From Nitrosopumilus sp. (GTDB lineage: Archaea; Thermoproteota; Nitrososphaeria; Nitrososphaerales; Nitrosopumilaceae): 64,000 nt of DNA. Every line of letters starts with the position of its first letter. The stretch's first letter is position 1. This document shows positions 13,435-35,994 of the stretch, piece after piece. The stretch lies in the NCBI GenBank assembly GCA_965223425.1, contig OZ245003.1:1952001-2016000 (forward strand). The letters run 5' to 3'. The position numbers and the translations under genes were made by a program. Below the pieces are notes generated by a model that did not search any database, was not told the origin of the DNA, and worked only from the letters and a program-made list of their open reading frames with translations.

Positions 13435-13620
13435 ATTTCTAAGGTTATGTCATGTTTTTTGTTTCTAAACCCTTGGATTTAGCTTTTAGTCAGAAGAAAA
13501 TTTCATTATGATCCAATAAATTAAAAAAATTACATGTTTTTCAAAACAATGATCATGTATTGCAACTAATAGAATCAATTATGCAATATATTTATAAGCA
13601 GTTTACGCTCATATTTAACC

Positions 13621-13743
13621 ATGTCCGAGATGGTTTGGAAGTGTTTTAGATGCAATCTGTCTTTCAAGGACGAGGATTTGGCTGAAATACACAAACAAAT
13701 TTCAGAACATTCTGTTACCAAAGTAAAGACACTAGCTGCATAA
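13621..13743 (+). CDS. 40-aa C2H2-type zinc-finger microprotein (below the ORF-track cutoff)
   Basis: ATG..TAA reads MSEMVWKCFRCNLSFKDEDLAEIHKQISEHSVTKVKTLAA; TTTATAA TATA-like box about 25-30 nt upstream. Confidence 0.75.
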   Translation: MSEMVWKCFRCNLSFKDEDLAEIHKQISEHSVTKVKTLAA

Positions 13744-13781
13744 TTTTTAAAAATTTTCTAAATATCATGAATAAAATTTAG

Positions 13782-13882
13782 TGCAGAGGGTGGGATTTGA
13801 ACCCACGAACTCCTGAGAGAAGGGATTTCCTATTTTGAGGATCTTGAGTCCCTCTCGGTTGACCGGGCTTCGATACCTCTGC
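13782..13882 (-). tRNA. tRNA-Leu(CAA) with about 16-nt anticodon-loop intron
   Basis: GCAGAGG/CCTCTGC acceptor stem, AGGGA-CTCAAG[intron]A-TCCCT anticodon arm, long variable arm, GGTTCAAATCC T-arm. Confidence 0.92.
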
Positions 13883-14204
13883 AATGAGGTTGGATAATGA
13901 CTGATATTTTTCGATTGCTATTATGGGAATTGGATACTCTAGCGGGATTAATTTTAGATCTTCTTTCTGTTTACTTTCGGGGGATACATTCATTCTTAAA
14001 AAAAATTGTTTGAAATTTATACACTAGACATTATGCATAATTGACCAGTCAAATTTTTTTTCTACAGCGCAAGCCATCAAGATACAAAGACAGGTCCAAA
14101 AAATGACCCGTCTGGCACAAAACATACGATCACTCAACAGATCCGGGAGAATTCAAGCGCACATGTGCGCACCATTCCATGCATCATGCACCCTGTATCA
14201 CATA

Positions 14205-15396
14205 TCAACAGTCAAGTGACGGCCGCTTTTTCTTTGCATCCCACAGCAAACCAAAGTTTGCAAGGCCGGTACACACAGCCAGCTCCTCGCGAAACTCCTC
14301 TACCGTGCCGTCGTACGGGTCTGTCATCCTCGCCCGCTGCTTTATTCTTCCGATGGCGTGCCCCGCCTTTACCCTCTTGGCGCTGATCCTTTTGTTCGAG
14401 TCCTTTTGCTGCTGCGTCAGCTCCGCTCGTGGCCTCTTTTTTTCCGGCATCTCAAGTGCTATTCCCTCGTAGTGATTGGCATCCCTGGTACCCCTTGTCT
14501 GCAAGCACCGTATCCTGTCCTTTTCCGGAGTGTCTTTTTTGTACATGGATTTAGACCACCTGCCAGTCTGTCGGATCCTCTCTTATCATGGCAAGATCGT
14601 GCGTCCCGCCCTCAAAGGACCTGCCTGCTGCAAGCATCGGGCCTGCCCTGTTTGTTGTTATGGTGGTGTTAATCGTAAAGCGCTTCTTTTTGCCAGAGTA
14701 CGTGTTTTTTCTTTTATCCCTGTCCTGCGGACGCTGCCTTGGCACCACCTCGGTGCCGTCAATTATGATGGTTCTGTCCGGCATTAGCTGCTCTAGCTGC
14801 CCTGATGTCTCGGCCTTTTTTACCAGACGGGTCATCCTGTCTGCAGTAGGCAGGATCCCTGCCAGCACGGAACCTGCGAACCGGAGGTACCTGCACACTG
14901 TGGACTGATCCGCATCAAACAGCGCCCCAGGGCGTCCTGCGTCACGTTTGAGCGCCTGCGGAACAGCGCAAGCAACAGGACGGATCTGCGGCCAGGCAGG
15001 CAGCGGTTTCCGGGATCCGGTGTTTCGTCCTCTGAAAAGAGCGGCGCGTCTTTGTTGTGCCTCTTTGACTCTGCCACAAAGTCGTTGCAGATGTAGTCAA
15101 ACTGGTCAAGGTCATACGGTAATCCCTGCAAGCTTTGCGCTGTTGTGCAGTATGCCGTGGATCACCTCCCTGCTGTGCAGCAGCGACGTGTCCGTATCAG
15201 AGCGGCCTGCATCTGTAACGGCCCACAGGCTGTCCTCGCGCAGCAGCTGCTGCTCGCGCAGCAGGCCAATCGTCTTCTCGCGCTTGCTGATTGCTCTGTT
15301 GTTCTGCTTGATTGCTGTGTCCTTTTGCCTGATTGCTGTGTCCTTTTGCTTGAGCTCTTTTTGCAGCCTGCGTATAGTCTGTTCTGAAGATTCCAT
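14205..15396 (-). pseudogene. Frameshifted IS5-family (ISL2-like, DDE_Tnp_4) transposase
   Basis: Split over four ORF pieces (15112-15396, 14832-15131, 14551-14898, 14205-14546); IDGTE...RP, YSGKKK, HD, YEGI, N...SAKR....HAIGRIK motifs; GC-rich relative to the host. Confidence 0.85.
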
Positions 15397-15551
15397 TACC
15401 TGTTGCGGCGATCAAAATGGATCTAAATCTTTCGGAAAAATTTTTATGATTCAATTATGCATAAAGTCTAATTTAATCAGATGCTTGCGTTTTTCATGTT
15501 TGTTCTCATTTAGAATATTTGTAAAGATTGGGTCTGTTGCTGTAATACCAT

Positions 15552-17306
15552 TCATGTGTTGGAATGAACCTCATATTTTAGATATATTGGTTTTTCCTTT
15601 ACGTCCAAAATATCTAATATTTTTTTGAATTCATCAAAATCCTTGATATCGTCTCTTCCTTCCTTGATAGCTTGATCTACAAAGGATTCTAGTGATTGCA
15701 TGCTATACATTACCGTATACATGATAAATAATTTTCTATTCAAGGTCAAAGATGTCTTTTCATGCATATAGTCTTGAACTATTCGTCTGCTCTGATTCCT
15801 GCTATCTGTCTTACAATTATCTTGCTCGAACTGCAAAATACGTTTTTCATGCATGATGATGCGATGATATAGTTCGCCAAAATCCTTAGAGGGTAGTAAA
15901 TCTTGGACGGATCTACCATGTTGTTTTTTATTGTATCTTGATAAGATATTGATTCTCTCTGATGCCTTTGAAAACTCGTATGTAAGTGATTCTGGATATA
16001 GCAATGCTTGTTTTTCATACGAATCCTTGGGACTGTGACCAAGAACATGATCTGCAACGTCAGGCCTGCATCCAGAATCAATCAGTGTGGATTTTAACAG
16101 ATCCCGCATTTCATGTGGAGTGCACCGATTCATTGTATGATCACCACGTAGTAATTCTACTCTTGCAACCAGCTTGTGAAATCTTCTTGATAGCCAGTTT
16201 ACTGTAATCGGTTTTTTGGCTCTGTTTACAAATAATGCCTCACCAACTTTTGGTTTTGCATGGCGGACATGCAGGTATTCTACTAGAGCAACAACTGCAT
16301 CTGTGTCAAGAAATCCCATATGCAAAAAATCTGTCTTTGTTCTTCTCAACTGTATTGGTACTGAAGTATTTTTGACATCCCATAATTCTGGTTTATCTGA
16401 TTGAAAGTGCTCTACAAGCTGTTCCCATACCTCAAAATTGAATCTGTCTGCAAACGTTGAGCTGTCAAGTCCCCTCTGGAATTTGCATAAAAATACCGCT
16501 TTCTCTATTGGCTGTATGTTTCTAATGGTGAGAATTTTTTGTAGAGTTTCAATGGATAGGGGAGCAGTTGGTATGTTTTTTGTTAATCTAATTCGAGATT
16601 TAAAATAAAATATAATCTCTGATTCGTTTTCCCGAAAAAATGATCTTATTGCATACATGGAATTTTTTACCAGATGTGGTTTCTCATCAAAGGCAATTTT
16701 ACCCAAATACTCCTTTATCTGCCGGGCACACTGACTCGGTACTATTTCGTCATGTACGGATCCCAGGCTTGCAGACTCCATCTGTTCTACGGCCTTTATG
16801 GCATACATCTCAGAGGCATCGATTTTCACATCGTATCTGTCAAGCAGGCTGTGGACGCGGTTTATCACGCGTGTCCTGTCCTGTACGGTCCTGATCCTCT
16901 GTCTGACCATGGCCCGGACTCCTCTTGTGTCAGCTGACGGCACATAACACTCTGGTATTGAATCCATCCTCAATACGTTTGCTATCTTTTGTGCGTCAAT
17001 CTTGTCTGTCTTCTTTCCCGTCTTTGCAATTATTGCCATCTTGTAGGTGTTGGCAAGCTTTATGTCGATTCCATGTCTCTCAAAGGCGCCGTATGTGATG
17101 TTCCACATGTTGCCCGTCGTCTCGCATGCTGCCTGACATCTTCTGGCAGAATACCTGAGTGCCGTCTGTTCTGCGAATCTGTCTGCATCTGAGACGGTGT
17201 TTTGATACTGGCCAGTATGCAAAACCTTTCCCTTCCCGTCCATGACGCATACGTCACATTTTCTCTTTCCAATGTCTATTCCTATGCTGATTGTTCCTTT
17301 GCTCAT
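15552..17306 (-). CDS. Chimeric ORF: IS110 transposase N-terminal DEDD domain fused to a tyrosine recombinase domain
   Basis: Start ATG 17306 with GGAGGTGA ribosome-binding site. GIDIG, ACETTG, KTDKID (IS110) to about 16715, then an AT-rich part with RGLD, R.KT, TPHEMR, LGH, SY (tyrosine recombinase motifs). Confidence 0.8.
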   Translation of the reverse strand: MSKGTISIGIDIGKRKCDVCVMDGKGKVLHTGQYQNTVSDADRFAEQTALRYSARRCQAACETTGNMWNITYGAFERHGIDIKLANTYKMAIIAKTGKKTDKIDAQKIANVLRMDSIPECYVPSADTRGVRAMVRQRIRTVQDRTRVINRVHSLLDRYDVKIDASEMYAIKAVEQMESASLGSVHDEIVPSQCARQIKEYLGKIAFDEKPHLVKNSMYAIRSFFRENESEIIFYFKSRIRLTKNIPTAPLSIETLQKILTIRNIQPIEKAVFLCKFQRGLDSSTFADRFNFEVWEQLVEHFQSDKPELWDVKNTSVPIQLRRTKTDFLHMGFLDTDAVVALVEYLHVRHAKPKVGEALFVNRAKKPITVNWLSRRFHKLVARVELLRGDHTMNRCTPHEMRDLLKSTLIDSGCRPDVADHVLGHSPKDSYEKQALLYPESLTYEFSKASERINILSRYNKKQHGRSVQDLLPSKDFGELYHRIIMHEKRILQFEQDNCKTDSRNQSRRIVQDYMHEKTSLTLNRKLFIMYTVMYSMQSLESFVDQAIKEGRDDIKDFDEFKKILDILDVKEKPIYLKYEVHSNT

Positions 17307-17488
17307 CCTTCTATCACCTCCTTTCGGATCTTTGACGGATCGGAAGCTGCATACACCTATCAGGGCGCAAGGCCCAGTCACACAGCAGCTCGGATTGCCC
17401 CATTCAAGATCAAGGGCGCATGGCCCATACGTACACAGGGGTCGATTCATCACTACAACTACGACGAGGTGGTTATCATGTGTTCAAG
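16715..17488 (-). mobile_element. Truncated IS110-family element (left non-coding end plus 5' half of transposase)
   Basis: DEDD RuvC-like motifs and GC shift; the C-terminal Transposase_20 domain and right end are absent; boundaries approximate. Confidence 0.8.
17322..17470 (-). ncRNA. Putative IS110 bridge-RNA-like structured RNA
   Basis: 5' hairpin with G-U pairs followed by two stems with large internal loops, each capped by a GGGC-N5-GCCC hairpin, directly upstream of the IS110 ATG. Folded by eye only. Confidence 0.6.
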
Positions 17489-18961
17489 CTAAGGAACATT
17501 CATGATTCCTTCTTTGATCAGAAACTGTATTCCTCGAATGAAAGAGTCATCGTCTATTTGTCCTGCTGCCCACCACTCTGCATTGTTTTTAATCCAAGAT
17601 GGGATTTCATTTGAACCAGAACCAGTATTGGATGTTGGCGGAATCTTTATGATTCCTTCTTTGATCAGAAACTGTATTCCTCGAATGAAAGAGTCATCGT
17701 CTATTTGTCCTGCTGCCCACCACTCTGCATTGTTTTTAATCCATGGCGGTATTTCAGAATAGGACACATCATTATCACTTGATTCTTCAAGAAGCGGATT
17801 CTCTGCAATCTCAACTTCCACTATCACATATCCGCCCAATTCAGAATTTGGTACTTCATATTCGTATCCTGTGCCGTGAACAAATATTGCATAACGGACA
17901 GTGCCTGCCTTTTCTTCTATTGGAAGAAGAATGTGGGCCTGGCCAAACCCGTTAAACAGATCTGCACGTCCAATGTCTTTGGCATACGAGCGAATTCTGT
18001 TGTTATCCTCATCTACTACCCAGATGTCATAATGAACCTGATCAACAAATTCCACTTCATTGTACTTGTTCATGAAATTTATTTTCCAGTCAATGTTGCA
18101 GCCCTCAATAGGTACCTCCGGAGAATAGTTGTACTGTACCAGCATGGAAAATGTGTTTGTGGATGCACGGCCACTCACATAATCATGAAATACGGTTGGA
18201 CATCCCAGCAGCTGTTCTTTTTTGACTGTTGATTCAACATCTCTGAAAGGATCATCTGTAACGTTTTCTTCATAATCTAACAAAGTGTACTGATGCATTA
18301 TTGGGGCAATGCCTGTTGTGACCCATGCAAAAGTAAGTGCCTTGAGGGGGAAAGGAAAATCATCCAGTATCCAAATCTCATTATTGTTTCCGCTGTACCA
18401 CCCAACTACAACGGCATCAGCAGTTCCTGCAGGAGTGTTTATCGTCTCCACTCGTTTTGGAATTAGCTGGGCGCCTCCAATGGCTGCAATCTTTCCCCAT
18501 GCGGCATCCCGGAATTCCTTTGGCCCGTGAACTCTATCATCTTCATTTGCAGTGGCAAAAGCAGACAGCCAGCTCAATGAGGACTTGAATCCAATTGCAT
18601 AGTCAAAAAGATCATCATCAAACAAAAAGGGGTTGGGGGCAACCTTGCCAAGCCCCATCGAGCCTTTGATGATCTTATTGCCGTCAATGACTACAACCTT
18701 TGCATCCCACAATGACTCACTTTCATTTTGTATCTCTCCTTTGATCCACATCTTCAGTTTGATTGGTGCACAGTCATTGAGATCTATTTCACACAAAGAA
18801 TACTCAAAGTAATCTCCAATTTTTAGTCCCTCGCCTGAATACCAAGAGCCGTCAACATCAACGCCGCCTGATGTTTGAACGCCCTGGCCAAAAGAGAGGT
18901 TTGAAAATGCAGGAATCGCACCTAAAATTAAAACTGACGCAACAATCAATACTAGTCTCAA
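17489..18961 (-). CDS. Secreted/surface protein with duplicated thaumarchaeal C-terminal IPxWIKNNA.WW..G.I.D..F..GIQ.LI domain
   Basis: Signal peptide; two copies of the characteristic Nitrosopumilus-type C-terminal motif. Confidence 0.85.
   Translation of the reverse strand: MRLVLIVASVLILGAIPAFSNLSFGQGVQTSGGVDVDGSWYSGEGLKIGDYFEYSLCEIDLNDCAPIKLKMWIKGEIQNESESLWDAKVVVIDGNKIIKGSMGLGKVAPNPFLFDDDLFDYAIGFKSSLSWLSAFATANEDDRVHGPKEFRDAAWGKIAAIGGAQLIPKRVETINTPAGTADAVVVGWYSGNNNEIWILDDFPFPLKALTFAWVTTGIAPIMHQYTLLDYEENVTDDPFRDVESTVKKEQLLGCPTVFHDYVSGRASTNTFSMLVQYNYSPEVPIEGCNIDWKINFMNKYNEVEFVDQVHYDIWVVDEDNNRIRSYAKDIGRADLFNGFGQAHILLPIEEKAGTVRYAIFVHGTGYEYEVPNSELGGYVIVEVEIAENPLLEESSDNDVSYSEIPPWIKNNAEWWAAGQIDDDSFIRGIQFLIKEGIIKIPPTSNTGSGSNEIPSWIKNNAEWWAAGQIDDDSFIRGIQFLIKEGIMNVP
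17502..17743. repeat. 95-bp identical direct repeat (17502-17596 and 17649-17743)
   Basis: Nucleotide-identical copies 147 bp apart encoding the duplicated C-terminal domain. Confidence 0.9.
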
Positions 18962-19177
18962 TATGAGATCAATTCAAATGCGTGCCTCATAAGTTATTCT
19001 ATGTTTTCTCACATATGACAATATTATGAATAGCAAAACCACAGTTTGAGCAGGCGGTTCTTAGAATCTAAAAGTATCAACATGGCAATCTTGAAACAAA
19101 ACACCGGTTGCTGGATTTTCTTGATACCAGACACACACACACATCATGCTTAATAATTATCAGCACGTATCTATGTA

Positions 19178-20251
19178 ATGAATGTTTTATTTCTTGGATT
19201 GCTGTTGATGATCTTGTTTTTGAGTACTGGAATGTATTCTGCTGATGCCGTAAAGGCCAAGGGAACCTATCTGCCTGAAATTAATTCTGACAAGGTCTGC
19301 GGTGACAGGCTGTGCTCTGAGATTAGCCAAGAGACAAAAGAGGCCAAATCCCAGATGTCAGAACAGGAAGATCCGGCAGTTGAGGACAAAGGGGAGGAAT
19401 CTGTCATGGATGATTCCCCGTACACCATAACAAATGTTGTGGGAAACATACATGTCCTCACAGACGGAAGATACAACTCGATGTTCATTCCAACTGGCGA
19501 GGGCGTGATAGTGTTTGATGCGCCCAACAATTTTGGTGAGAACCTCGTAGAGTTAATCCAGGGGACTACAGGCAAGTCAGTAACACATCTGGTGTATAGC
19601 CACGCACACAAAGATCATATAGGTGCGGCGCACGTGTTTGGAGATGGCGTGACAATCATTGCACACGAGGAGACCAAGGCATGGCTTGAGCGCTCTAATG
19701 ATTCACAGCGTCCAATACCTGACATAGCATTCTCAGACCAGTACACGCTTGAGCTTGGGGATACTATAGTAGAGCTGTCATACAAGGGGCCGGCACATGT
19801 AAGGGGAAACATCTTCTCATACATTCCAGAATACAAGACGCTGTTTCTAGTTGATCATGTGCAGCCTGGCTGGGTTCCATTTTATGCCCTTGGAATATCC
19901 GAAGACATAGGTGCATACATGGATGCATACGAATGGATTTTAGAGTATGACTTTGAATATTTTGTTCCAGGACACGGCATGGTAGGTGACAGGGACGATG
20001 TATTATTACACCAAAAATACGTCATGGATTTACGTGACAGTGCCCTTGATGCAATCCAAACAGTTGACTATGCAGAGGCCACTGCCAACGTGGATCCACA
20101 TGGATACAATGTCTTTGATGCGTATCTTACTACCTTGGCAGACAGATGCGCCAAGCTCAGCGACGATACATGGCGAGATGTGCTAATCGGCACGGATACG
20201 TGGACTGAGAGCAGCTGCAAGAGGATGATCCTGAGCATTTTTGTCGATTGA
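19178..20251 (+). CDS. Secreted metallo-beta-lactamase-fold hydrolase
   Basis: Signal peptide, SHAHKDH (HxHxDH), H, D and PGHG motifs; N-terminal KVCGDRLCSE motif. Confidence 0.88.
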   Translation: MNVLFLGLLLMILFLSTGMYSADAVKAKGTYLPEINSDKVCGDRLCSEISQETKEAKSQMSEQEDPAVEDKGEESVMDDSPYTITNVVGNIHVLTDGRYNSMFIPTGEGVIVFDAPNNFGENLVELIQGTTGKSVTHLVYSHAHKDHIGAAHVFGDGVTIIAHEETKAWLERSNDSQRPIPDIAFSDQYTLELGDTIVELSYKGPAHVRGNIFSYIPEYKTLFLVDHVQPGWVPFYALGISEDIGAYMDAYEWILEYDFEYFVPGHGMVGDRDDVLLHQKYVMDLRDSALDAIQTVDYAEATANVDPHGYNVFDAYLTTLADRCAKLSDDTWRDVLIGTDTWTESSCKRMILSIFVD

Positions 20252-20639
20252 TAAACTGGGACAGATGAGCAGATGCATGCAACCTTTGCAGGTATGAAAT
20301 ATGCAAAAGAGCCACATATACACACACACAGTAGCTGCTGTCTCAGGTCAGACGTGCCGCAGTTAATCAAAAAGGGTTGTGGGTAACGCTTCCCTAGCTC
20401 ATGATGGGACATTGCATAACAGGCATGGCACGGGTCAATGTTCTGGCGATCTGGGTTTTGGAAAAAGATAGCCTTACTTTTAGTGCGAGAATCTGAACAA
20501 GCATACATTGAATTAAGACATGCAAAAATTCGCAGACAGTGCAACTTTCCACACATCATATTTGCAACTCAGCTGAGTTAGGTGCAAGTTCCACAGTGAA
20601 CATCTTTTAGGCAGATCAGATGAATTCGTGCCATAAATT

Positions 20640-21650
20640 CTATGGAAAGTTTTTCAGAGTCATGTACCCGTGCGACTTTGCATTTGCATAGTGGTTTCTG
20701 ATAATTTTTTCAAAATCCGAGTCAAATCGGGTTAGAGATTTTTCCAGCATTGGTATTTTTTCCCGGTAATCTTTGTTTCTCTCAATGAGCTTATTGAGGT
20801 AATCCATTGGAGGCAGCGCACCTAGCTTCTGCAGATTACATTTTTGACACGCCAGGGTAAGATTCCAAATGTCATCTTCGGCAATGTAATCAAATGGAAT
20901 GACGTGCTCTACATGCGTGTCCCTTCCGTCCGGAAGGAGTTTTTTGCAATAAAAACAGTCTTTAAAATGAGGTTCCAATGATTTTCTGAACTTGGTCAGT
21001 GATTTTCTAGACATGTTCTTTCCTTCTGTTTTGGTTATTATTTTGGGAAGGCCAATGTTTAGCTTTTCAAGAAATTTGGCCCACTCTAGTATCACTGCCT
21101 TGAGCAAAACGGCATTGTACCTCTTGAAAAACTGTATTGCATTTGGATTAAGGTTTATACCATAATCAAGATCAACATATTTTCTGTTGGGATTCTTTAC
21201 TCTGGCAACTTTGTAGTCAAAGAACAGTCTAACTTCGGTGGCCTTGCTGACCTTGACTCTCTGAAACCTCCACACCACATTATGAAAGCACGACTTTACA
21301 ATTTTGTCAACGCAGTTTTGAATTTTTTCAGGCTCTTGCATCGCCATCTCCTTGAATGTTTGTGGGTAGTACGGCTTGGGAAATTCCTTTTCTATGATTT
21401 TTACTATCTCTGGTTTCTTTGTAGATTGGGGCGCATGCTTCATCTTTAGTTTGCATATCTGGGTCCAGTAGTATTTTAGAAAGTATTGTGCAATGACATT
21501 AAAATTCACATGTGTTTTGGTGTGGTCCCTGCTGTATTCTAACATAAACCGGGCTAGTGCAAACTTGTAAGTGTTGTCCTTGGCGCCATGACTTATTACA
21601 TTTAGAAATACCCTCTCAAATTCATCATCTGAGATAATATCGAAGATCAA
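20640..21650 (-). CDS. HNH endonuclease (McrA-like, putative defence)
   Basis: NTYKFAL N-terminal motif; CFYC...HVEHVIP......IWNL..AC..CN..K. Confidence 0.85.
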   Translation of the reverse strand: MIFDIISDDEFERVFLNVISHGAKDNTYKFALARFMLEYSRDHTKTHVNFNVIAQYFLKYYWTQICKLKMKHAPQSTKKPEIVKIIEKEFPKPYYPQTFKEMAMQEPEKIQNCVDKIVKSCFHNVVWRFQRVKVSKATEVRLFFDYKVARVKNPNRKYVDLDYGINLNPNAIQFFKRYNAVLLKAVILEWAKFLEKLNIGLPKIITKTEGKNMSRKSLTKFRKSLEPHFKDCFYCKKLLPDGRDTHVEHVIPFDYIAEDDIWNLTLACQKCNLQKLGALPPMDYLNKLIERNKDYREKIPMLEKSLTRFDSDFEKIIRNHYANAKSHGYMTLKNFP

Positions 21651-21974
21651 TGTTTTAAAAGATACACTAACAAAAATATGCGTTTCTCAAATACGTGTTG
21701 ATTTAGGATTTATGTTCACGACATCAATAAATAAGTTGGTTATTAATTTATACGGAGTTGCCCGATAACGCCGTAATTTGATCAAGGAGACCACCCCCCG
21801 GGATCGTCTCAAGGCATCCTGTCGTTATCCTATGACAGAATTGACTAAACATCTTTTCTGTTGCTTGTTGCCATTTGACGTGGCGGCACATATACAAAAA
21901 ATCCGAGATTTGTAATGTTTTTTTTCTTTAGTTGGTTTTCCTTCCTGTCCACTTGCATAAAGGGTTCCACTGTT

Positions 21975-23348
21975 TTAACTCATAGAGCGAACTTGTTCTT
22001 TGCAGATATCTGCATTGCAGCCACACGTAGCATCACATAGACAGGCGCCTTGCATTACACAATCACATTCGGAGCTCATATCTGCAGATGCTGCACAACC
22101 ACATGCTGCATCTTGAGTAGTGGAAGCTACTGCAGGTGGTGGTGGTGGTGGGCTTTGCTGTGTAGTTTCTTCATAAACGCTTCTGGTGTACTGATAACTA
22201 GCATCGTCTTTTAGTTGGGCCTCACCTCTGTTGGTCTGATAGCCACCAGATGATGAACTGGTTTCATAACCTACTAGTCTGCCGGGATCAATTCCCTGTT
22301 GGCCTTGTGCCTCGCGTTTAAGTGATCTATTACTGAAAATAAAGAACCCAATTCCTGCAATAGCTGCAAGGCCTGCCATTCCATAAACTATCATAATTGG
22401 AAATCCGCCAGTCGAAGTCGTTGCGTAACCTTCTGGAGGAGTTGGGGTAATGCCTGCAATTTCGATTCCATCTAAACTATCTAATGCGCCAAATCCTATT
22501 GCAGCAAGTGTACCTTGATCAGCAGACTGCACACTTCGAACAGTATATGGTTGATCTGCCATTACTTCAGCTTCAAAGACTCTTTCTACTTGCCTTCCTT
22601 CCCTTAGACTGCTCTCTCCCATAGTCCAACTAGACACAACAAATCCAGAAATTTCTTCATCTAATCCAAATGTTCCAGCATCCACATTGATTCCGGTTGG
22701 ATCAAACAAAAAGTGCCAGTTTGTTATCGGTTGTTCTAAAATAAAGTCCGCATCAATAAGATGCCTGTTCAAAACATCTTCTGCTGCAGTCCCAGCAAGG
22801 AAGGCATAAACTCCAGGTTCTTGGTCTCTAAGTAGATTTATTGGAATGTTAATCTCTACACCATCAACTACAATTTCATCAGTAACAGTTAGTCCTCTCC
22901 AACCCAAATCAACTAGCGTTCTTTGAGAGTCTTTTGTAATTACATAATTAGTTAATGTTCCCTCTATGATTACCTGGTAATCAATAGAGGTACTGACATT
23001 TCTTGCTTTAAGATGAAAATCATAAGTAACCTCCAAGTCAGAAACTTTTGCTTGACTTCCATCAGATGCAATTGATCCATTGAGTTTGTCTATCAAATTT
23101 TGAACTCCGGCATTTGACGAGTCAGCAGTTCCTGCTATTGTCCATTCTTTTCCTTGTAATTCATCAAACAGATCTCCCCCATTTGGATATTCAATAAAAA
23201 CAGTTTTTTGATAATTCATCTTAAATGGAGATGACTCATTATTTGGATTAACTCTAGCATCTAGTTGTGCAGCCCACGCAGCAGGGGCACTAGTACCTGC
23301 AACGATAAGACCAGCAAGTAAAACTGTTAAAACTATGGCCCTAGACAC
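21975..23348 (-). CDS. Membrane-anchored hypothetical protein with Cys-rich metallothionein-like tail
   Basis: Signal peptide from GTG 23348, one TM helix, Pro-rich linker, C-terminal CGC..CDC..CLC..CGC..C. Confidence 0.8.
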   Translation of the reverse strand: MSRAIVLTVLLAGLIVAGTSAPAAWAAQLDARVNPNNESSPFKMNYQKTVFIEYPNGGDLFDELQGKEWTIAGTADSSNAGVQNLIDKLNGSIASDGSQAKVSDLEVTYDFHLKARNVSTSIDYQVIIEGTLTNYVITKDSQRTLVDLGWRGLTVTDEIVVDGVEINIPINLLRDQEPGVYAFLAGTAAEDVLNRHLIDADFILEQPITNWHFLFDPTGINVDAGTFGLDEEISGFVVSSWTMGESSLREGRQVERVFEAEVMADQPYTVRSVQSADQGTLAAIGFGALDSLDGIEIAGITPTPPEGYATTSTGGFPIMIVYGMAGLAAIAGIGFFIFSNRSLKREAQGQQGIDPGRLVGYETSSSSGGYQTNRGEAQLKDDASYQYTRSVYEETTQQSPPPPPPAVASTTQDAACGCAASADMSSECDCVMQGACLCDATCGCNADICKEQVRSMS

Positions 23349-23462
23349 GAAAAAAATCAAGTTCAAGAAAGTAATAAACCTATCCAAATTATTGATCGCT
23401 GTTTTTTGAAAAAGTAATATTGAGCAAGACATGTAGACTTTGCAGTTTTAGGAGAAAATGGT

Positions 23463-24383
23463 ATGATCACAGTTTTGGCAGGAGGTACAGGTTCAGTCAA
23501 GTTAGTTAGAGGTCTGGTTTCCCAAGAATCCAAAGTTAATGTGATTAGCAATGTAGGAGACAATTACTGGCTTTACGGGTTATACGTATGTCCAGACATT
23601 GACACCATTGTTTATGGTTTGGCAGATTTACTTGATCAAGAAAAAGGATGGGGAGTAAAAAAAGATACTTTCAACTTTTTACGCCAGATGGAGGTTTTTG
23701 GAGAAGAGACCTGGTTTAGAATAGGGGACAGAGATGCTGCAACGCATTTGATCAGAACAAACATGCTAAAGAACGGAAAAAATCTCAGCGATATTACAAA
23801 ATGGATGTGTGAGAAATTTGCAGTTAGTGCCAACATCATACCAGTTACAGACAACAGTATTGAAACAAGAATTATCACAGACAAGGGAGAACTGCATTTG
23901 CAAGAATATTGGGTCAAACACAGAGGAAAAGACCCCGTTGAAGGAATTCAGTATATCGGGGCAGAGAAATCACGTCCAAACCCTGAAGCCGTAAATGCAA
24001 TACATGATGCAGACATGGTAATCTTGGCCCCGGGAAACCCACTAACGTCAATAGGGCCGATGCTCCAGATCAAGGGAATCAGAAAAGAATTATCAAAGAT
24101 AAAGAAGAAGGTAGTGGCAGTTAGCCCATTAATTGGAGACAATTCCATTAGTGGCCCGGCAGGAAAATATATGCAGGCTGCAGGAATAGAATCAAATGCG
24201 TATGGATTGGCAAAAATGTATTCAGACGTTTGTTCTAACATTATCGTAGACACTAAAGACAGAATGCTAATAAAGAAAATACAAAGCCTGGACATGAAAG
24301 TTTTTGAAACAAAAATCACTATGAAAAATAAACTGGCAGAAGACGCATTGGCAAATTTCATTTTAAAACAAGTACACGTATAA
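23463..24383 (+). CDS. cofD: 2-phospho-L-lactate transferase (F420 biosynthesis)
   Basis: LAGGTG, NVGDN, CPDIDT, GDRD.ATH, P.NP.TSIGP. Confidence 0.95.
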   Translation: MITVLAGGTGSVKLVRGLVSQESKVNVISNVGDNYWLYGLYVCPDIDTIVYGLADLLDQEKGWGVKKDTFNFLRQMEVFGEETWFRIGDRDAATHLIRTNMLKNGKNLSDITKWMCEKFAVSANIIPVTDNSIETRIITDKGELHLQEYWVKHRGKDPVEGIQYIGAEKSRPNPEAVNAIHDADMVILAPGNPLTSIGPMLQIKGIRKELSKIKKKVVAVSPLIGDNSISGPAGKYMQAAGIESNAYGLAKMYSDVCSNIIVDTKDRMLIKKIQSLDMKVFETKITMKNKLAEDALANFILKQVHV

Positions 24384-24384
24384 C

Positions 24385-25017
24385 TTGAAAATAGCGGCCA
24401 TAATTCCTGTAAAGGCTTTCTCTAATGCAAAAAACCGCTTAGATTTACCTCCGCATCAAAAAGAGGAGCTATGCAAAATAATGTTAGAGGAAATTTTATA
24501 CACAATATCAATATCGCCTAAAATCGAAAAAACAGTCATTGTAACAAAGGAGGAAAAAGCAATTGAGATGGGTAAAAAATTCAACGCCACAACCATAACT
24601 GATGAAAAAGAAGAAAGTGTCAACAGCGCAGTTGCGCTTGCAGACAAGTATCTTTTAGAGAACAACTTTGATGCCTCAATTGTATTTCCCCAGGACATCC
24701 CGTTTATGAAAACCCAAGACATTGATTTTATGCTAAACTATGTTGCCCCCCCAAATTTTGCCATAGTTGTTCCATCTAGAAGGTTTGATGGCACCAATGC
24801 GCTAGTCAGAATGCCAGTAAATTTGATGGAGACCCACTATGATGAGGACAGCTACAAAATTCACATGAATACAGCCAAGGAGCATACGCTAAATGCGGCG
24901 CTGGTTTTTGTGAAACGGATCATGCTGGACATAGACAATACTGAGGATCTAGGCTTTCTGCTAGGGCAAAGCGAAAAACCTCTGGTTGTGGAAAAAATCA
25001 AGAAGATTTTAGAGTAG
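24385..25017 (+). CDS. cofC: 2-phospho-L-lactate guanylyltransferase
   Basis: IIPVK....AK.RL, D.P, GTNAL, DID..EDL; follows cofD. Confidence 0.92.
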   Translation: MKIAAIIPVKAFSNAKNRLDLPPHQKEELCKIMLEEILYTISISPKIEKTVIVTKEEKAIEMGKKFNATTITDEKEESVNSAVALADKYLLENNFDASIVFPQDIPFMKTQDIDFMLNYVAPPNFAIVVPSRRFDGTNALVRMPVNLMETHYDEDSYKIHMNTAKEHTLNAALVFVKRIMLDIDNTEDLGFLLGQSEKPLVVEKIKKILE

Positions 25018-25215
25018 GTTCAGGAATATGCCAGGAGTAGCACAAAAAATTACAGTTTTCATGGGTTATCACACTCTAAATCTTCGGCGGGGGATCTTCT
25101 CAAAGTAACAGATCGGTTGGTTTTGCATTTTTGAGGGGACATCACCCAAGATGAATTTAGATTCTTGTTGAGGTAAACGCATATTTTTACTAAATCCTAT
25201 TCAGCATATGATTTT

Positions 25216-25421
25216 TTACAAATATTTTTTATTTTCTTTAATATAATATTTCATAAACCATTTTACAAAAAACATTTCATCGTTTTTCAGCTGTGATCTT
25301 TCTAATGATTTGAAATATTTTCTTCTATCTTTATTTTTGATTAACATGAATGGACAGTCAAATTTGAATAAAAGATAATTCATAATCAATCTGGACATCC
25401 TGCCGTTTCCGTCAACAAATG
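25216..25421 (-). pseudogene. Fic-domain protein, 3' fragment
   Basis: Reads PFVDGNGRMSRLIMNYLL (HPFxDGNGR motif lacking its His) immediately from the IS66 end. Confidence 0.85.
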
Positions 25422-25437
25422 GTAAGAGGCTAGGTCT

Positions 25438-26811
25438 CTAGTACAGTCTCAGTATCTCTTCTTGAATGCTGGTGCCCCTTTTCTGCCATGTCAGCAAGCA
25501 GCTCACAAGTATGCCAAATACCTTCATGCCTGCTTCGGTGACAAGACGCTGTCTAATCTTGCGCGATATGACGACCCGGCGAAGCATCCTTTCTGATTCG
25601 TTGTTTGTGGGATCCATTCCGGGATGCTTTAGAAACGTAAACAGGTTTGGTGTGGCCTTTTCCAGCTTGTCTCCGAACTTGCAGTCCGGACAGCCCTTGT
25701 ACGAATCCGCAATTGCCGTGCAGGAGATCACAAACGAGTCATAATGCGTGTGCGCGTCAGGCCGCAGCGCAACCTGCTTTGCATCGTGGTATAGCAAACG
25801 CAGTTTCTCATACAGCATGGTTTTTGGTTCATCACCATCATCACCATCATCCTGTTCAAATTCGGCATCACACAGTATGTGCGACCGGCACCGTTGAATT
25901 GTTCTGAAACGATTGTATGCCGCATAACCGTCGACTGTCACGGGAATATCCCAGTGAGGAAAGTGAAGATCCAGTACGGCAGCGGCCCTGCTTCTGTCCA
26001 CATGAATCAGTACCGCATCATCACCGATGCATACCCAGACATATCCCAGTTTGTCGTATATTGTATATGACGTCTCATCAAGTTTCAGGTATTTTGATCT
26101 GCCAATATTTTCTTTCCATGACTCTACCTCCGGCTCTAACGCTCCTCCTAATGCAAACAGCGCGTTTTGTATTGTTTTTTTGCAGATTGACGTGTCATAC
26201 AGGCTTGCTGCCTCCCTGATTGAGTTCAGGCTGCAGCCTTGTTTATACATCGACATGGTTATTGTCATGAGGTTCTTGCCAATCGATGTTCCGTCTATTC
26301 CGACCTGGGGTGTTGTGACATGTCCGCACCTGCAGGTGCAGTGCTGTATGACGTTGTTTGTGGATGCGGTCCTTGGAATCTCCGGAATGTCGACTGTCAT
26401 CTTTGTCGTGGTCTTTGTAACTGTAATGCCTTTGCTGCCGCACTTTGCGCATTTCTTTGGCCTGTGCACCGTTGTGTGATCAGGCCTTCTCTTGTGGGAT
26501 GCGCCGACGTGGCCTGCACTTGCTCCGCCCTTGTTTGGAGGAGGGGAGGAGGAGGAGGAGGAACCGCCTTTTGCACGGTCTGCCTTTTTTCGGCGCGTGG
26601 GAATGGAGTTTGCCGACGGCGGTGAGTGCGGATTCTCGTAGAACGCTACGCGCCTCTTTAGTTCCGCCATTGTCAAATCCTTCTCGGCTTCCCTTGCCTG
26701 TAATTTTTTTACATCGCCTGCCAACTGGCTGACAATCTTTCGCAAGCTGTCGTTTTCAGCAAATGATTTTGCCAGAGCATCCCGTAATATCTTGATCTCC
26801 GAGTCACTCAT
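25438..26811 (-). CDS. IS66-family transposase (TnpC-like)
   Basis: N-terminal coiled coil, NPHSPPS, C..CG zinc ribbon, DET, DGYAAY, TNNESERMLR. Start at ATG 26811. QRCRSH instead of the usual QRCWAH may indicate decay. Confidence 0.88.
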   Translation of the reverse strand: MSDSEIKILRDALAKSFAENDSLRKIVSQLAGDVKKLQAREAEKDLTMAELKRRVAFYENPHSPPSANSIPTRRKKADRAKGGSSSSSSPPPNKGGASAGHVGASHKRRPDHTTVHRPKKCAKCGSKGITVTKTTTKMTVDIPEIPRTASTNNVIQHCTCRCGHVTTPQVGIDGTSIGKNLMTITMSMYKQGCSLNSIREAASLYDTSICKKTIQNALFALGGALEPEVESWKENIGRSKYLKLDETSYTIYDKLGYVWVCIGDDAVLIHVDRSRAAAVLDLHFPHWDIPVTVDGYAAYNRFRTIQRCRSHILCDAEFEQDDGDDGDEPKTMLYEKLRLLYHDAKQVALRPDAHTHYDSFVISCTAIADSYKGCPDCKFGDKLEKATPNLFTFLKHPGMDPTNNESERMLRRVVISRKIRQRLVTEAGMKVFGILVSCLLTWQKRGTSIQEEILRLY

Positions 26812-26816
26812 TAGAC

Positions 26817-28118
26817 CAGTAGTTGGGATTGTACATTTTGGATAGCCCAAACTGATCATTTTGAGAACAAAACACGATCAACCAGATCCAAATACAAGGC
26901 ATGCTCACCCACCTTAACATGTACGAAAAAGATGGGCAAACACACCAACAGAACCAAGACATCAGGGGATTTAAAATCTTCCAGTCCGCACTGCAACACC
27001 TGAACCTTGCCTTTGGCACAAGACACAACACGCTGTACTGCCTCAGGGATGCAGCGCACATGCTTCTGGTCATGGCCAGCTCCAACGGATACGCCAACGG
27101 CGCGCGAGATCTCGGCTCTCCCGGCATCCGCATGCCGTCGGGCAGCTGGCTGCTCAAAAAGCTGCGCATCATAAAGCAGGACAAGATGAACCGCTTCTGC
27201 GACCAGATGATGCATGATACGGTCAACACGGCATGCCGCAGCATGAGGCGACGCATCAGCAACGAAACGGCAGTGGCTGCAATAGACAAGCACAAGATTC
27301 CGCACCATGACAAAAACCCCGACCTCAAACACCTCATACAGTCAAAATACGAGTCAGGAACGTACAGGTTTGAGTCATACATGACATCCAAGATAGTGCA
27401 GGGCGGCAAAGAGGCCAACCTGTGCTTCAGTCCGGTCACCCGGGGTACATCCAACGGCGAATTCGTGCGTAAAACCATCAAAAAGTGCTCCAAGCTGCAC
27501 CTTGGAATCAATCTTTACCTTCTTGACAGGGAGTTTTACGCAACAGACGTGATGCGGACTGTCAGATCGCTTCACAGGCATTTTATCATGCCGGCAAAAA
27601 AGAATGCCGGCATCAAGCGCGCCATTGTACAGCACGCCCAAGGAAAGCGCGGTGATGTCTCTAGGTACACCATAAAATCAGGCTCCGAAAAGTTCACGTT
27701 CAACCTGGTTCTGATCAGGGATGACGCCAGGAAAAAAGACGGCACCATGTTTGACAGGTACCACGCATTTGCAACGTCGCTGCCATACGAGAATGAAAGG
27801 GACGTTGTCAAGTACATCCCAGAGCAGTACAAAAAACGTTGGGGAATTGAAACGGGGTACAGGTCTGCAAAGAGCGTACGCGCGCGCACTGCCAGCAGGA
27901 ACCCCTCCGTACGGATGCTTTTGTTTGTCTTGTCACTGGTGATAAACAACATCTGGATAGGCCTGCGTCGCACGGTGTGCAGACAAAGATATCATGTGAC
28001 ACTTGCCGGTGTTTTAAACAGGATGATCCGCGTGTTTGCAGAATATGTGTATGCCAGGTGGCCACCGCCTATCGGGTGATTTGTGGGCTGTTTTGGAACG
28101 GTACAATCCCAACTACTG
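26817..28118 (+). mobile_element. ISH3-type (IS4-related DDE) insertion sequence
   Basis: 18-bp perfect IR CAGTAGTTGGGATTGTAC (26817-26834 / 28101-28118) with TTAGAC direct repeat on both sides. Confidence 0.9.
26901..28079 (+). CDS. ISH3-family DDE transposase
   Basis: AID, LLDREFY, Y.KRWGIETGYR motifs. Confidence 0.88.
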   Translation: MLTHLNMYEKDGQTHQQNQDIRGFKIFQSALQHLNLAFGTRHNTLYCLRDAAHMLLVMASSNGYANGARDLGSPGIRMPSGSWLLKKLRIIKQDKMNRFCDQMMHDTVNTACRSMRRRISNETAVAAIDKHKIPHHDKNPDLKHLIQSKYESGTYRFESYMTSKIVQGGKEANLCFSPVTRGTSNGEFVRKTIKKCSKLHLGINLYLLDREFYATDVMRTVRSLHRHFIMPAKKNAGIKRAIVQHAQGKRGDVSRYTIKSGSEKFTFNLVLIRDDARKKDGTMFDRYHAFATSLPYENERDVVKYIPEQYKKRWGIETGYRSAKSVRARTASRNPSVRMLLFVLSLVINNIWIGLRRTVCRQRYHVTLAGVLNRMIRVFAEYVYARWPPPIG

Positions 28119-28274
28119 TTAGACAGAATCAGGGATCATCGAATTTGGATCAGTATGATCTAGAATGTTTGAGTTCGTGACTAACCTAGCCTCTTACGAG
28201 CCGATCATCAGCAGACTTATAAGGAATGATTTAGAAAATGTTAAATATTATCATAAAAGGTTTTGATGAATATA

Positions 28275-29183
28275 ATGGTTAAAACAGTAAATCCAAAAGA
28301 CAAGTGTCCAAGATGCGGACAGAGCACTCTAGTTACAGATGCAAACACCGGGGAAAATTTTTGTGGAAAGTGTGGATTTGTAATTACAGACAAAGTAGAA
28401 GAGTCAGGACCAGAATGGAGATCATTTTCAAACGAAGGGGAAAACAAAAGCAGGGCAGGGGTTCCAACATCACTTGCTATGCACGATATGGGATTAGCAA
28501 CAGTCATCAATCCTCAAAACAGGGACGCAACGGGAAAACCATTAACAGCTTCTATGAAAAGTACGATTGAAAGACTTAGGACTTGGGACAGCAGAAGTCA
28601 AGTTCACGAACCAGTAGACAGGAACTTTAGACAGGCATTTAGCGAGCTAGACAGGTTAAAAGATAAGCTTGCAGTAGGTGATGCAGTTATTGAAAAAGCA
28701 GCATACATTTACAGAAAGGCACTTGAAAAAGGGCTAGTCAGAGGACGTTCTATTTCAGCGTTGATTGCATCTGCACTTTATGCAGCATGCAGAGACACAG
28801 AAACGCCTAGAACGCTAAAAGATATCGGACAGTCAAGCAACATTAAACGAAAAGACATTGCCAGATGCTACCGTCTATTATTAAGAGAGCTTAATTTGAA
28901 GATGCCAGTAGTTGATCCAGTCAAATGTATTTCAAGGATAGCAAGCAAGGCAGGATTATCTGAAAAAACAAAAAGAAAAGCTACAAAGATTTTACAGACA
29001 GCCGAAGAATTGAAAATTTCTGCAGGAAAAGATCCGATGGGGTTAGCCGCAGCTGCACTTTATGTTGCATGTGTAACTAACGGTGAAAATAAAACTCAAA
29101 GAGACGTGGCCGAAGCAGCAGGGGTGACTGAAGTTACCATCAGAAACAGATACAAGGGATTGAAAGTGGCGCTAAACCTCTAG
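28275..29183 (+). CDS. tfb: Transcription initiation factor IIB (paralog 2)
   Basis: CPRC..CGKCG ribbon, GPEWRSF B-reader, GKDPMGLAAAALY, AGVTEVTIRNRY. Confidence 0.96.
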   Translation: MVKTVNPKDKCPRCGQSTLVTDANTGENFCGKCGFVITDKVEESGPEWRSFSNEGENKSRAGVPTSLAMHDMGLATVINPQNRDATGKPLTASMKSTIERLRTWDSRSQVHEPVDRNFRQAFSELDRLKDKLAVGDAVIEKAAYIYRKALEKGLVRGRSISALIASALYAACRDTETPRTLKDIGQSSNIKRKDIARCYRLLLRELNLKMPVVDPVKCISRIASKAGLSEKTKRKATKILQTAEELKISAGKDPMGLAAAALYVACVTNGENKTQRDVAEAAGVTEVTIRNRYKGLKVALNL

Positions 29184-30161
29184 ATCAGGTCTTTTTTTAG
29201 AATAATATCTTTTTGCAAGCAATATAAAAATCGACAAAGCGCCCGTAACTAGGAACAGTGACTCTAGTGAGGACATCAATGAATGGGAAAATGCTTGCTC
29301 AATCGAAATGAGATTCAATTGTGAAATAAAATTTGCATATGAGAATACAAAATAGTTGGTGGCCCAGTGAATCAAAAGCGCGGCCACAAAGCCATATCTA
29401 AGATAGACCCACCCCAGAATAATTCCGCTTGCGGCAGCCTGTGCAAACTTGCCTTCACTCCAAGGTTCACCTAAAGCAATGTGGGCAAATCCAAAAATGA
29501 TTCCAACAAGGACAATCAGGAAAATTGCTTTTTTATAATCATGGATGTCTAAATTATATGGCCGCCACAAACATTTGATAAAATATTTTGCAGAAGATCT
29601 ACTAGAATACAGCGCAAATAAAGGGACTCCAATCAGAATCAAACGAAATCCAAATTCTTCTATCACAGGAGCAAGACTCACGTAAAAAAATTGGATGAGA
29701 TCATTTTCAACAAGAGGTGGATCAATCATAATTCCAAATCCTTCCTGAACATAATTGATCAATACAGAAACGAAGATCAAAATGGAAAACCATTTTGTTA
29801 CACCAATCATATAGTTTGATACAGTATCATATTTTCCAAAAGAAATTATTGGCAAGAGTGATTTTAGAAATCCATGTTTTGGACCCAGCATTGCAATTAC
29901 AAAGATTATTGCATAAAAAGTCCACAATACAACAAATACATCTCCAACACTTACATCAATTGTGGCCTGATAGAGTGCAGTGCCATCAAACAAAGCCAAA
30001 TGTGTAAACGGGTATTCATAATTGATGTCTCCGCCTATTTCACTCTCAAAAACAACAAAGAGCCCTATGGGAAAAGAGACAAGAAACAATCCAAAGATCA
30101 CAGATATTAGCGCAGTGAAAGGAATTCCAAGAGCTTGAAGTATTTTGTTTGAGCTTTGCAA
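29172..30161 (-). CDS. CPBP/CAAX-family intramembrane metalloprotease
   Basis: AP..EE..FR, FG.AH, HW..N motifs; polytopic. Confidence 0.88.
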   Translation of the reverse strand: MQSSNKILQALGIPFTALISVIFGLFLVSFPIGLFVVFESEIGGDINYEYPFTHLALFDGTALYQATIDVSVGDVFVVLWTFYAIIFVIAMLGPKHGFLKSLLPIISFGKYDTVSNYMIGVTKWFSILIFVSVLINYVQEGFGIMIDPPLVENDLIQFFYVSLAPVIEEFGFRLILIGVPLFALYSSRSSAKYFIKCLWRPYNLDIHDYKKAIFLIVLVGIIFGFAHIALGEPWSEGKFAQAAASGIILGWVYLRYGFVAALLIHWATNYFVFSYANFISQLNLISIEQAFSHSLMSSLESLFLVTGALSIFILLAKRYYSKKRPDLEV

Positions 30162-30167
30162 TTTGTT

Positions 30168-30476
30168 CTAATGTAGTTCTATACTCTCTTCAGGGAATCC
30201 CAAACCAATCAAAGTGTCTTTGATAGTGTCTCTATGATCACCTTGTAAAAAGATGTAGCCTTCTTTTGCAGTACCACCACAGGCATATTTATTTTTGAGT
30301 TCTTTGGCAACAGTTTCTAAATTATTTAGTTTAGGATCTAGTCCTTCAATCATTGTACCTTTTTTCTTAAATCGTCTTGTTTCCAATCGAATTATAATTT
30401 TAGTACTATCTTTGGCAAGTTCACCACATGCGCACAAGTCTTCTGGAAGACCACAAGTATTACAAATTACTGCCAT
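30168..30476 (-). CDS. yciH: Translation initiation factor SUI1/aIF1
   Basis: CGLPEDLC.C N-terminus, LK.K.ACGGT, LQGDHR. Confidence 0.93.
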   Translation of the reverse strand: MAVICNTCGLPEDLCACGELAKDSTKIIIRLETRRFKKKGTMIEGLDPKLNNLETVAKELKNKYACGGTAKEGYIFLQGDHRDTIKDTLIGLGFPEESIELH

Positions 30477-30573
30477 TCGTTCGAAATGATTTCAGTTATA
30501 CGCACTATTAAGCCTTGTTTGGTGAACTCAGAATTAAAATAATTGTACTTTTTAGATAGGAAATCAAATGAGA

Positions 30574-30909
30574 ATGGTGTCAAAAGATCTTACAAAAAAA
30601 GCTGCCGAAATACTGCTAAAAGGAGGAACGCTGCTTGGTGAAAAATGCCCATATTGCTCGGGAGTGAGGGTGATAAAAGACGGACATGCTTTATGCACAA
30701 GTTGTGGGCGTAAACCCGAAAAAAAAGAAATTCCAAAAGAGGCAGTACAACAAAGTACAAAATCATCATTAGAAGAAGCTTTAGAAAAAAAGATGGAGCA
30801 TCTATCAAAAGAGCTGGAACAGGAAAAGAACCATGAAAAGCAACAGGAGATTTTAAAATCGATCAACTCTTTATTGGAAACTTTGGAAAAAACCAAGAAC
30901 AGGCAATAA
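30574..30909 (+). CDS. UPF0148/Sjogren autoantigen p27-family zinc-ribbon protein
   Basis: AE.LLKGGTLL...CP.C.....C..CG motif followed by a coiled coil. Confidence 0.8.
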   Translation: MVSKDLTKKAAEILLKGGTLLGEKCPYCSGVRVIKDGHALCTSCGRKPEKKEIPKEAVQQSTKSSLEEALEKKMEHLSKELEQEKNHEKQQEILKSINSLLETLEKTKNRQ

Positions 30910-31074
30910 AGTTGATTGTTAAGTGGGGAACCGGCCTTAAAAATCACCCCAGCCTCGATATGTCAGGCCCTAAGATTCTTTTGCAGGAATAACTGAACTG
31001 CCTTTGATTCCTACACCTAACCTGGATTATCACATGGATGAAACTTTTTTCAAGAATTCCTAGCTAAAGTATTA

Positions 31075-31151
31075 TTTTTTTTTTTCAATCAAGTCAGGAC
31101 AGTTAATTTCATCAAATATTGCAATCACGTTGTCGCACCCAATACCCTCAA
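31075..31151 (-). pseudogene. Possible PIN-toxin N-terminal remnant
   Basis: LRVLGATT then, after a frameshift, VIAIFDEINCPDLIEK, resembling a PIN start (VLD....IA); runs into a poly-A tract. Confidence 0.3.
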
Positions 31152-31152
31152 T

Positions 31153-33346: not shown

Positions 33347-33390
33347 CTACAGGAATAAGGTTTTTATGTTAAAATCCGTGTTTCCGAATT

Positions 33391-33558: not shown

Positions 33559-33565
33559 AAAAACT

Positions 33566-35951: not shown

Positions 35952-35994
35952 GAAGTGAATATAGGTTTTATTACAGGCACTTGAAATTACAATT

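Follow-up and report, generated by a model that had tools for sequence, protein, structure and literature searches.

Halves of an IS110 recombinase gene and a tyrosine-recombinase gene joined in one reading frame of a Nitrosopumilus genome: very probably a deletion scar

Background

Does a single open reading frame (ORF) that leads from an IS110-type transposase straight into a tyrosine recombinase encode a recombinase of a new kind, or is it the trace of a rearrangement? The question arises at positions 15552-17306 of a 64,000-nucleotide stretch of the Nitrosopumilus sp. assembly GCA_965223425.1 (contig OZ245003.1, positions 1,952,001 to 2,016,000; this whole stretch is hereafter called the window). 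There, a first-pass annotation made from the sequence alone had reported about 195 amino acids of an IS110 protein running into an integrase body, and had offered as explanations an accidental deletion, an assembly chimera or, more adventurously, a domain-swapped recombinase that uses a tyrosine nucleophile while still linked to a bridge-like RNA. Our analysis confirms the fusion, and we conclude that it is very probably a chimeric pseudogene, left by one illegitimate deletion at the level of microhomology. The genome in which it lies, G000, consists of two contigs (C1, the main contig, and C2) totalling 2.64 Mb, with a completeness of 99.99.

Results and discussion

One open frame, two truncated parents

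The fusion comprises the following features.

15552..17306, minus strand: chimeric ORF encoding P0001, 584 amino acids, from an ATG at 17306 to a stop codon at 15552; recognised by Pfam, NCBIfam and alignment to relatives.
16716..17306, minus strand: 5' half of an IS110 recombinase gene; over 783 aligned columns, it shares 98.6% identity with the intact copy (C1:2063368-2064149).
15552..16715, minus strand: 5'-truncated tyrosine-recombinase gene of a thaumarchaeal mobile-element family; recognised by its relatives, a family alignment and a structural model.
16715..16718, minus strand: junction ..SQCARQI-KEYLGK.., at an ATAA that was probably common to both parents.

The longest reading of the frame, from a GTG at 17453, gives 633 amino acids. 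Within the 584-residue protein, residues 1-197 are the IS110 DEDD/RuvC domain with its coiled coil, and residues 198-584 are a tyrosine-recombinase body equivalent to residues 102-422 of full-length integrases, plus a C-terminal tail of about 59 amino acids. Both families are matched by Pfam in this one protein, as the annotation had it (PF01548, DEDD_Tnp_IS110, residues 8-158, E 8.9e-29; PF00589, Phage_integrase, residues 310-426, E 2e-10). The NCBIfam profile transpos_IS110 (NF033542) aligns its positions 2-193 of 343 with residues 8-204, scoring 110 bits against a cut-off of 140; since the profile is matched only to position 193, the protein contains roughly the N-terminal half of an IS110 enzyme. 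The change of partner, annotated as ARQI-KEYLGK near 16715 with an abrupt drop in GC content, could be placed at 16715-16718, where GC falls from 0.51 (16700-16899) to 0.305 (16500-16699). Each half is open because its native frame has been kept, and as two such halves join in frame with a chance of about one in three, the open frame is nothing above chance.

The parent of the IS110 half is still present in the genome. The 5' part of a 1.41-kb IS110 element occurs there in six copies, and the intact one (C1:2063368-2064777) encodes 364 amino acids with PF01548 followed by PF02371, the Tnp domain that bears the serine nucleophile, at residues 222-308. The window copy keeps this layout, at 98-99% identity, from its left end at 17488 to 16710-16715, with no match beyond. 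Past ..ARQI-, the intact copy reads RSLTEEIRHMDE, and the locus has no right end, which in complete copies reads ..ACATAGGTG. Residues D11, E62, D101 and D104 of P0001 line up with the GID, mEat and KTDxxDA blocks of the ISCro4 transposase (PDB 9t56), so the D-E-D-D set is intact; Pfam finds no PF02371 in P0001, and the serine-bearing domain is gone. On both points the annotation was accurate.

The IS110 copies have themselves been targets of insertion. Four of the six are split by nested insertion sequences (ISs) at differing points (C1:1871987-1874298, 2133301-2135839, 850532-853072 and 273452-276306); the insert in the first of these is a DDE_3/HTH transposase element flanked by TA(T), and two copies carry a 1.13-kb insert at the identical site.

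For the integrase half, a search with P0001 residues 198-584 yielded 472 proteins at E<=0.001, of which we describe the best 120, the other 352 hits not being shown. The closest among the matches listed are P0003 (426 amino acids, 89% identity), P0005 (422 amino acids, 86%) and P0004 (428 amino acids, 81%), and the relatives that carry names, among them a 'tyrosine-type recombinase/integrase' of Candidatus Nitrosotenuis cloacae, come from Thaumarchaeota. Full-length relatives, of about 420-430 amino acids, have some 100 residues N-terminal to ..VRLI-KEYLGK.., the point at which P0001 has ..ARQI-KEYLGK... An AlphaFold model of P0003, built on a 79-sequence family alignment (predicted local distance difference test, pLDDT, 89.3; predicted template modelling score, pTM, 0.76), has an N-terminal domain, made of helices plus a beta hairpin, that extends to residue 130 and is followed by a linker and a catalytic domain. 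Foldseek matches it to two-domain recombinases in the PDB, namely XerA 5hxy (E 3.9e-7), 4a8e, Tn1549 Int 6en2, XerH 5jk0 and lambda Int. The fusion break, at I101/K102, falls within helix 95-111 of the model rather than at a domain border. Judged from this model, the integrase half retains the whole catalytic domain together with a mere stump of the predicted DNA-clamping N-terminal domain, about 100 of whose roughly 130 residues are gone. The ORF also extends about 59 codons beyond the end of P0003 and P0004 (window 15552-15730, minus strand), in a region where the C-terminal tail is variable in the family.

The K, HxxR, LGH and Y motifs that had been read from the sequence are all there: K324, H398-E-M-R401, L-G-H424, Y430 and Y437 each have their catalytic-motif residues (K324, H398, R401, H424, Y430, Y437) on invariant columns of the 79-sequence alignment. 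Canonical tyrosine recombinases carry their first catalytic arginine in a G-L-R..E motif, and the annotation had remarked that this position reads GLD in the fusion. The reading holds (QRGLD, residues 277-281), but it is not a lesion. The family motif is Q-R-G-L-D-S-S-T, whose R, G, D and T are the same in 79/79 sequences, so that GLD is not a sign of decay; R278 lies three residues upstream of D281, and both are among the invariant positions. The R-G-L-D..T motif occupies residues 181-188 of P0003 (277-284 of P0001; window about 16455-16478, minus strand). Compared with PDB sequences, the family profile reaches a best E of only 0.86, with the Arg I region outside the match, and a search for the XerA family in the genus at a threshold of 1e-40, which was too strict, returned 0/13. 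The invariant R-G-L-D-S-S-T raises the question of how the active site of this family is built.

The junction in other samples and assemblies

A join where a six-copy repeat ends, and where GC content changes in a sharp step, is what one would see if the assembler had linked the IS110 repeat to an unrelated integrase contig. The chance that this happened is nevertheless close to nil. A 3055-nt contig from run X4, which belongs to a different study, covers 15300-16913 and so spans the junction interval (16700-16730), with one changed letter that results in P190L. A 1295-nt unitig from X1 covers 15443-16737 at a depth of 998, equal to that of the neighbouring unique DNA (1000), while IS110 segments in the same run are about five times deeper; in X3, a 696-nt unitig of depth 2 leads from unique integrase sequence to 16737. 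The X1 and X3 unitigs reach about 20 nt into IS110, whereas a full bridge needs 31 letters, and X4 alone is therefore counted as such. All four runs were examined as contigs, and the uncovered parts in X3 and X6 carry no weight.

A second assembly encodes the same fusion (P0002, 581/584 residues identical to P0001). All three differences are in the IS110 half, and each is a variant found in other copies of the window genome, from which the IS110 half of the fusion differs by 1-2%; they may reflect gene conversion or repeat collapse. Finally, the genome that carries the fusion is assembled in just two contigs. The junction is real in the DNA.

Origin of the fusion

At the junction, the sequence is ..CAGATAAAGGAGTAT.. 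in the window, compared with ..CAGATAAGGAGCC.. in the intact IS110 copy and ..ATAAAAGAGTAT.., or something close to it, in integrase relatives. Relatives encode the invariant I-K as ATA/ATC-AAA/AAG, for example ..TTGATAAAAGAGTAT.. in L022. Taking the protein-level invariance of I-K together with the DNA of the more distant relatives, the two parents probably shared at least ATAA at the crossover.

When P0003, P0004 and P0005 were compared with the whole genome by tblastn, their first 97-107 residues had no match anywhere, and residues 98/108 onward matched at the fusion locus and at one 38%-identical paralogue (C1:1579333-1580499). Every 3' half of IS110 that the genome contains is still paired with the 5' half that belongs to it. 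Neither the missing IS110 and integrase halves nor a reciprocal junction was found in the whole genome, and as there is no reciprocal product we reject inversion in favour of deletion. With both parents identified, both truncated, the lost halves absent and microhomology at the joint, the deletion first suggested by the annotation stands, and the assembly chimera suggested alongside it fails on the X4 contig and the second assembly.

A 5'-truncated integrase gene might also be the Int(C) half of an integrase of the SSV type, split when its element integrated off target into an IS110 copy. SSV-type integrases have their attachment (att) site within the gene, which is split on integration, and one such element is described from Thaumarchaeota (PMC6563490); the break in the present gene is in its N-terminal quarter, as this origin would have it. 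We nonetheless regard it as very unlikely. Contigs of about 2 Mb carry the relatives P0012, P0020, P0021 and P0023 unsplit, and relatives in G009 have open frames of 430-582 amino acids covering query residues 2-377; with its members whole on such contigs and in near-complete genomes of relatives, the family is not one that integration splits. Neither an Int(N) piece nor an IS110 3' half on its own occurs in the genome, and the fold is Xer/lambda-like, with SSV1 Int a weak Foldseek match to the P0003 model (E 0.099).

We therefore return to a deletion. In the scheme that we propose, a 1.41-kb IS110-family element would have inserted just downstream of a 490-amino-acid gene, close to an integrase gene that belonged to an integrated, AT-rich mobile element. 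A deletion with end points at an ATAA in the IS110 gene (after codon 197) and an ATAA in the integrase gene (codon 101/102) would have taken out the IS110 Tnp domain and right end, the intervening DNA and the first 100 or so codons of the integrase, and the frames of the two halves would have met by a one-in-three chance. We infer this order of events from the present arrangement.

IS110 enzymes need their serine nucleophile domain, and tyrosine recombinases clamp DNA with a core-binding domain. Since the former is missing from the fusion product and most of the latter is gone, we infer that the product would have no recombinase activity.

A more elaborate route was also considered and set aside, in which recombination between two copies of a nested, TA-targeting IS leaves one copy, which is then lost by precise excision. 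This route is compatible with the TA inside ATAA and with the nested DDE_3 element in copy C1:1871987, and has no direct support.

Several observations weigh against a pseudogene born of deletion. The IS110 break lies near the border between coiled coil and Tnp domain, leaving at the N terminus a tidy module of RuvC domain and coiled coil, as a designed swap would. There is no disabling mutation in either half, R278, K324, H398, R401, H424, Y430, Y437 and the DEDD residues all being intact. At least two samples or assemblies contain the fusion. Expression is possible, because the IS110 sequence upstream, probably including the promoter, is still the native one. To these must be added that the unfused parental locus, and hence the size and content of the deletion, was not recovered: the genomes of 40 relatives gave at best a 56%-identical integrase (in G009), and a genome-contig search for the locus with P0003 gave 13 pattern matches, 0 confirmed. 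A cut near that border on the IS110 side, intact halves, a retained upstream region and presence in several samples are, however, equally expected of a recent neutral event, the IS110 copies being 98-99% identical.

Could the protein act without being a recombinase itself? With the upstream region intact, the fusion, or its RuvC and coiled-coil part, could be made from the IS110 promoter and serve as a regulator, or as a poison subunit, that pairs through its coiled coil with the full-length recombinase and damps transposition, the integrase being a passenger. IS621 is described as dimerising through its coiled coil (PMC11208158), and the fusion retains residues 1-197, corresponding to profile positions 2-193; a possible partner exists in the one intact IS110 copy. 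Such a role is very unlikely in our view. Four other IS110 copies already encode N-terminal stubs of 149-201 amino acids as a result of nested IS insertions, so that the fusion is not singled out, and nothing points to selection. In a broader version, which we also hold to be very unlikely, an expressed chimera would join IS110 complexes through its RuvC domain and coiled coil, and would either poison transposition or bring the tyrosine-recombinase domain to bridge-RNA-bound DNA; separately, the truncated copy might supply a bridge RNA, with its own target-loop variant, in trans to the intact recombinase.

Distribution of the architecture

The annotation had pointed to a search for proteins with DEDD_Tnp_IS110 and Phage_integrase together in other genomes. 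Among the 120 integrase relatives listed, one has both Pfam families, and this is P0002, the organism's own protein. A search with residues 140-260, the region across the junction, gave nine hits among 52 candidates. Only one of the nine extends over the whole region, and it is again the organism's own protein; seven reach over 55% of it, on one side only, and the remaining one, an integrase, covers 75% at 45% identity. In the ESM Atlas the matches were to integrase clusters only, with scores <=0.83 that serve as leads only, and none of the clusters listed has both families.

These results bear most directly on the domain-swapped recombinase, in which binding of the bridge RNA would fall to the RuvC domain and coiled coil, and the nucleophile would come from the tyrosine-recombinase domain. 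The open frame, the intact catalytic residues of both halves, a bridge-RNA-like gene directly upstream and a cut close to the border of coiled coil and Tnp domain all suit such an enzyme. Against it, the architecture is confined to one organism among the matches listed, the integrase is cut in mid-helix so as to leave a domain stump (in the P0003 model), the Tnp domain is gone and the event is very recent. Tyrosine recombinases, moreover, have a chemistry and geometry unlike those of IS110 enzymes. For IS621, the reported layout is RuvC 1-122, coiled coil 123-188 and Tnp 189-326, the active site is described as formed jointly by RuvC and the Tnp loop that carries S241, and the bridge RNA as recognised by the full tetramer (PMC11208158). 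A working domain swap is thus extremely unlikely, and the annotation's more adventurous suggestion is not borne out.

A bridge-RNA-like leader

Upstream of the fusion ORF, the window copy retains the left end of the IS110 element, which has the following features.

17307..17488 (182 nt), minus strand: IS110 left-end non-coding region with a bridge-RNA-like gene; recognised by comparing loop motifs with element ends and flanks.
About 17441-17398, minus strand: target-type loop, with a hairpin at 17426-17414 and a guide-like GATCTTG at 17411-17405.
About 17389-17346, minus strand: donor-type loop, with a hairpin at 17375-17363, TGTGT at 17384-17380 and ATAGGTG at 17360-17354.

Both internal loops are capped by a GGGCC-WTGC-GCCC hairpin. 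We compared the leaders of eight related copies in the genome (the window copy, C1:2063368, 1871984, 2135842, 850529, 276306, 2362873 and 129390). The second, donor-type loop is invariant in 8/8 of these copies or relatives; its TGTGT reads as the left end, ACACA, in reverse complement, and its ATAGGTG is identical to the right end ..ACATAGGTG. The first, target-type loop contains a 7-nt word that occurs in four variants (GAGCTTG, GATCTTG, GAGTTTG and GTTTCTG), and the left flanks of the elements, five bases plus a shared TG, are TAGCT-TG, CATCT-TG, TAGTT-TG and GTTTC-TG. A copy's word agrees with its own flank at 6-7 of 7 positions in four of the eight copies and at 4-5 of 7 in the other four, including the window copy (5 of 7). 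For every one of the four flank types, some copy has a word that agrees with it at 6/7 or better. On the opposite side of the target loop is TATGCA, the reverse complement of TGCATA, which is the right flank of the intact copy; a second target-loop variant matches its right flank at 5/6, shifted by one base. Rfam at E<=1 has no family in window 15300-17700, and the leader folded as a single sequence does no better than shuffled sequences (minimum free energy z-score 0.93).

In this handful of related copies, the pattern of matches fits a putative bridge RNA, possibly one that acts in trans between copies, and the target-loop variants suggest reprogrammed bridge RNAs of this kind. The bridge-like RNA to which the annotation had tied the fusion thus has a counterpart at 17307-17488, but it is there only because the IS110 left end was kept, and a bridge-RNA-like leader does not make the chimera an RNA-guided enzyme. 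Nor did we retain bridge-RNA-guided recombination as the cause of the joint, which resembles neither the target nor the donor words.

Genomic surroundings

The fusion has the following immediate neighbours.

14025..15472, minus strand: DDE_Tnp_4 insertion sequence, frameshifted, with its transposase over two frames; more than 30 copies of the family in the genome.
17489..18961, minus strand: intact host gene encoding 490 amino acids; orthologues in 28/30 other genomes of the genus at E<=1e-30.

The DDE_Tnp_4 element lies 80 nt downstream of the stop codon of the fusion ORF. It includes a 21-bp tandem repeat (15284-15353, 3.4 copies) whose number varies between copies of the element, as is visible in staggered BLAST hits. 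On the other side, the IS110 left end starts directly after the stop codon of the 490-amino-acid gene, many of whose orthologues cover the query to residue 489-490.

More broadly, the genome is dense with nested ISs, and the fusion falls within an 8.7-kb interval (13435-22147) between rearranged blocks. In comparison with the relative G007, genes up to window position 13434 are colinear with G007 1062258-1067851, and window 22147-37000 corresponds to G007 949373-958675; the two flanking blocks, adjacent here, stand in reverse order in G007, with about 100 kb between them (C1:949373-1101000). The genes that follow a VTT-domain gene in G007 map to 762-811 kb of G000, about 1.15 Mb away in the window genome, and G007 has nothing that matches, at the DNA level, the MBL-fold and HNH genes at 19178-21650. 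Contig C2 (123,097 bases) has a GC content of 46.9%, compared with 41.2% for the main contig, and could represent a plasmid, some other large mobile element or contamination.

Conclusions

The fusion protein itself matters little: it is a by-product of the churning of the genome in an archaeon undergoing IS expansion. Annotation pipelines will report it as a two-domain 'recombinase', for which a pseudogene flag would be fitting. Of wider interest is the IS110 family in this genome, which forms a small natural series of bridge-RNA target-loop variants, with four flank types each matched.

Comparison with known systems

Three known systems resemble the locus. The first is that of the IS110 bridge recombinases, such as IS621 and ISCro4. 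Residues 1-197 of P0001 are a genuine RuvC-like DEDD domain with its coiled coil, and the window copy keeps the left end with its two-loop bridge-RNA-like gene; it differs in being without the Tnp domain, the serine nucleophile and the right end, and is not a transposable unit.

The second is that of the XerC/XerD-like integrases described from thaumarchaeal mobile elements (PMC6563490). Residues 198-584 of P0001 are 81-89% identical to their closest relatives, with the catalytic domain complete and the invariant residues kept, whereas the first 100 or so N-terminal residues are gone and there is a 59-amino-acid tail that the relatives lack. The family as a whole departs from the first-arginine motif of canonical tyrosine recombinases.

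The third is that of the deletion chimeras associated with ISs in IS-expanded genomes. As in these, a truncated IS is joined to a truncated neighbouring gene, the lost parts are absent, there is microhomology at the joint, and synteny is broken, with nested ISs around the locus. Nothing essential differs; what is unusual is only that both partners are DNA recombinases and that the frame was kept. The fusion is real, but it looks like an ordinary product of rearrangement and not a new enzyme.

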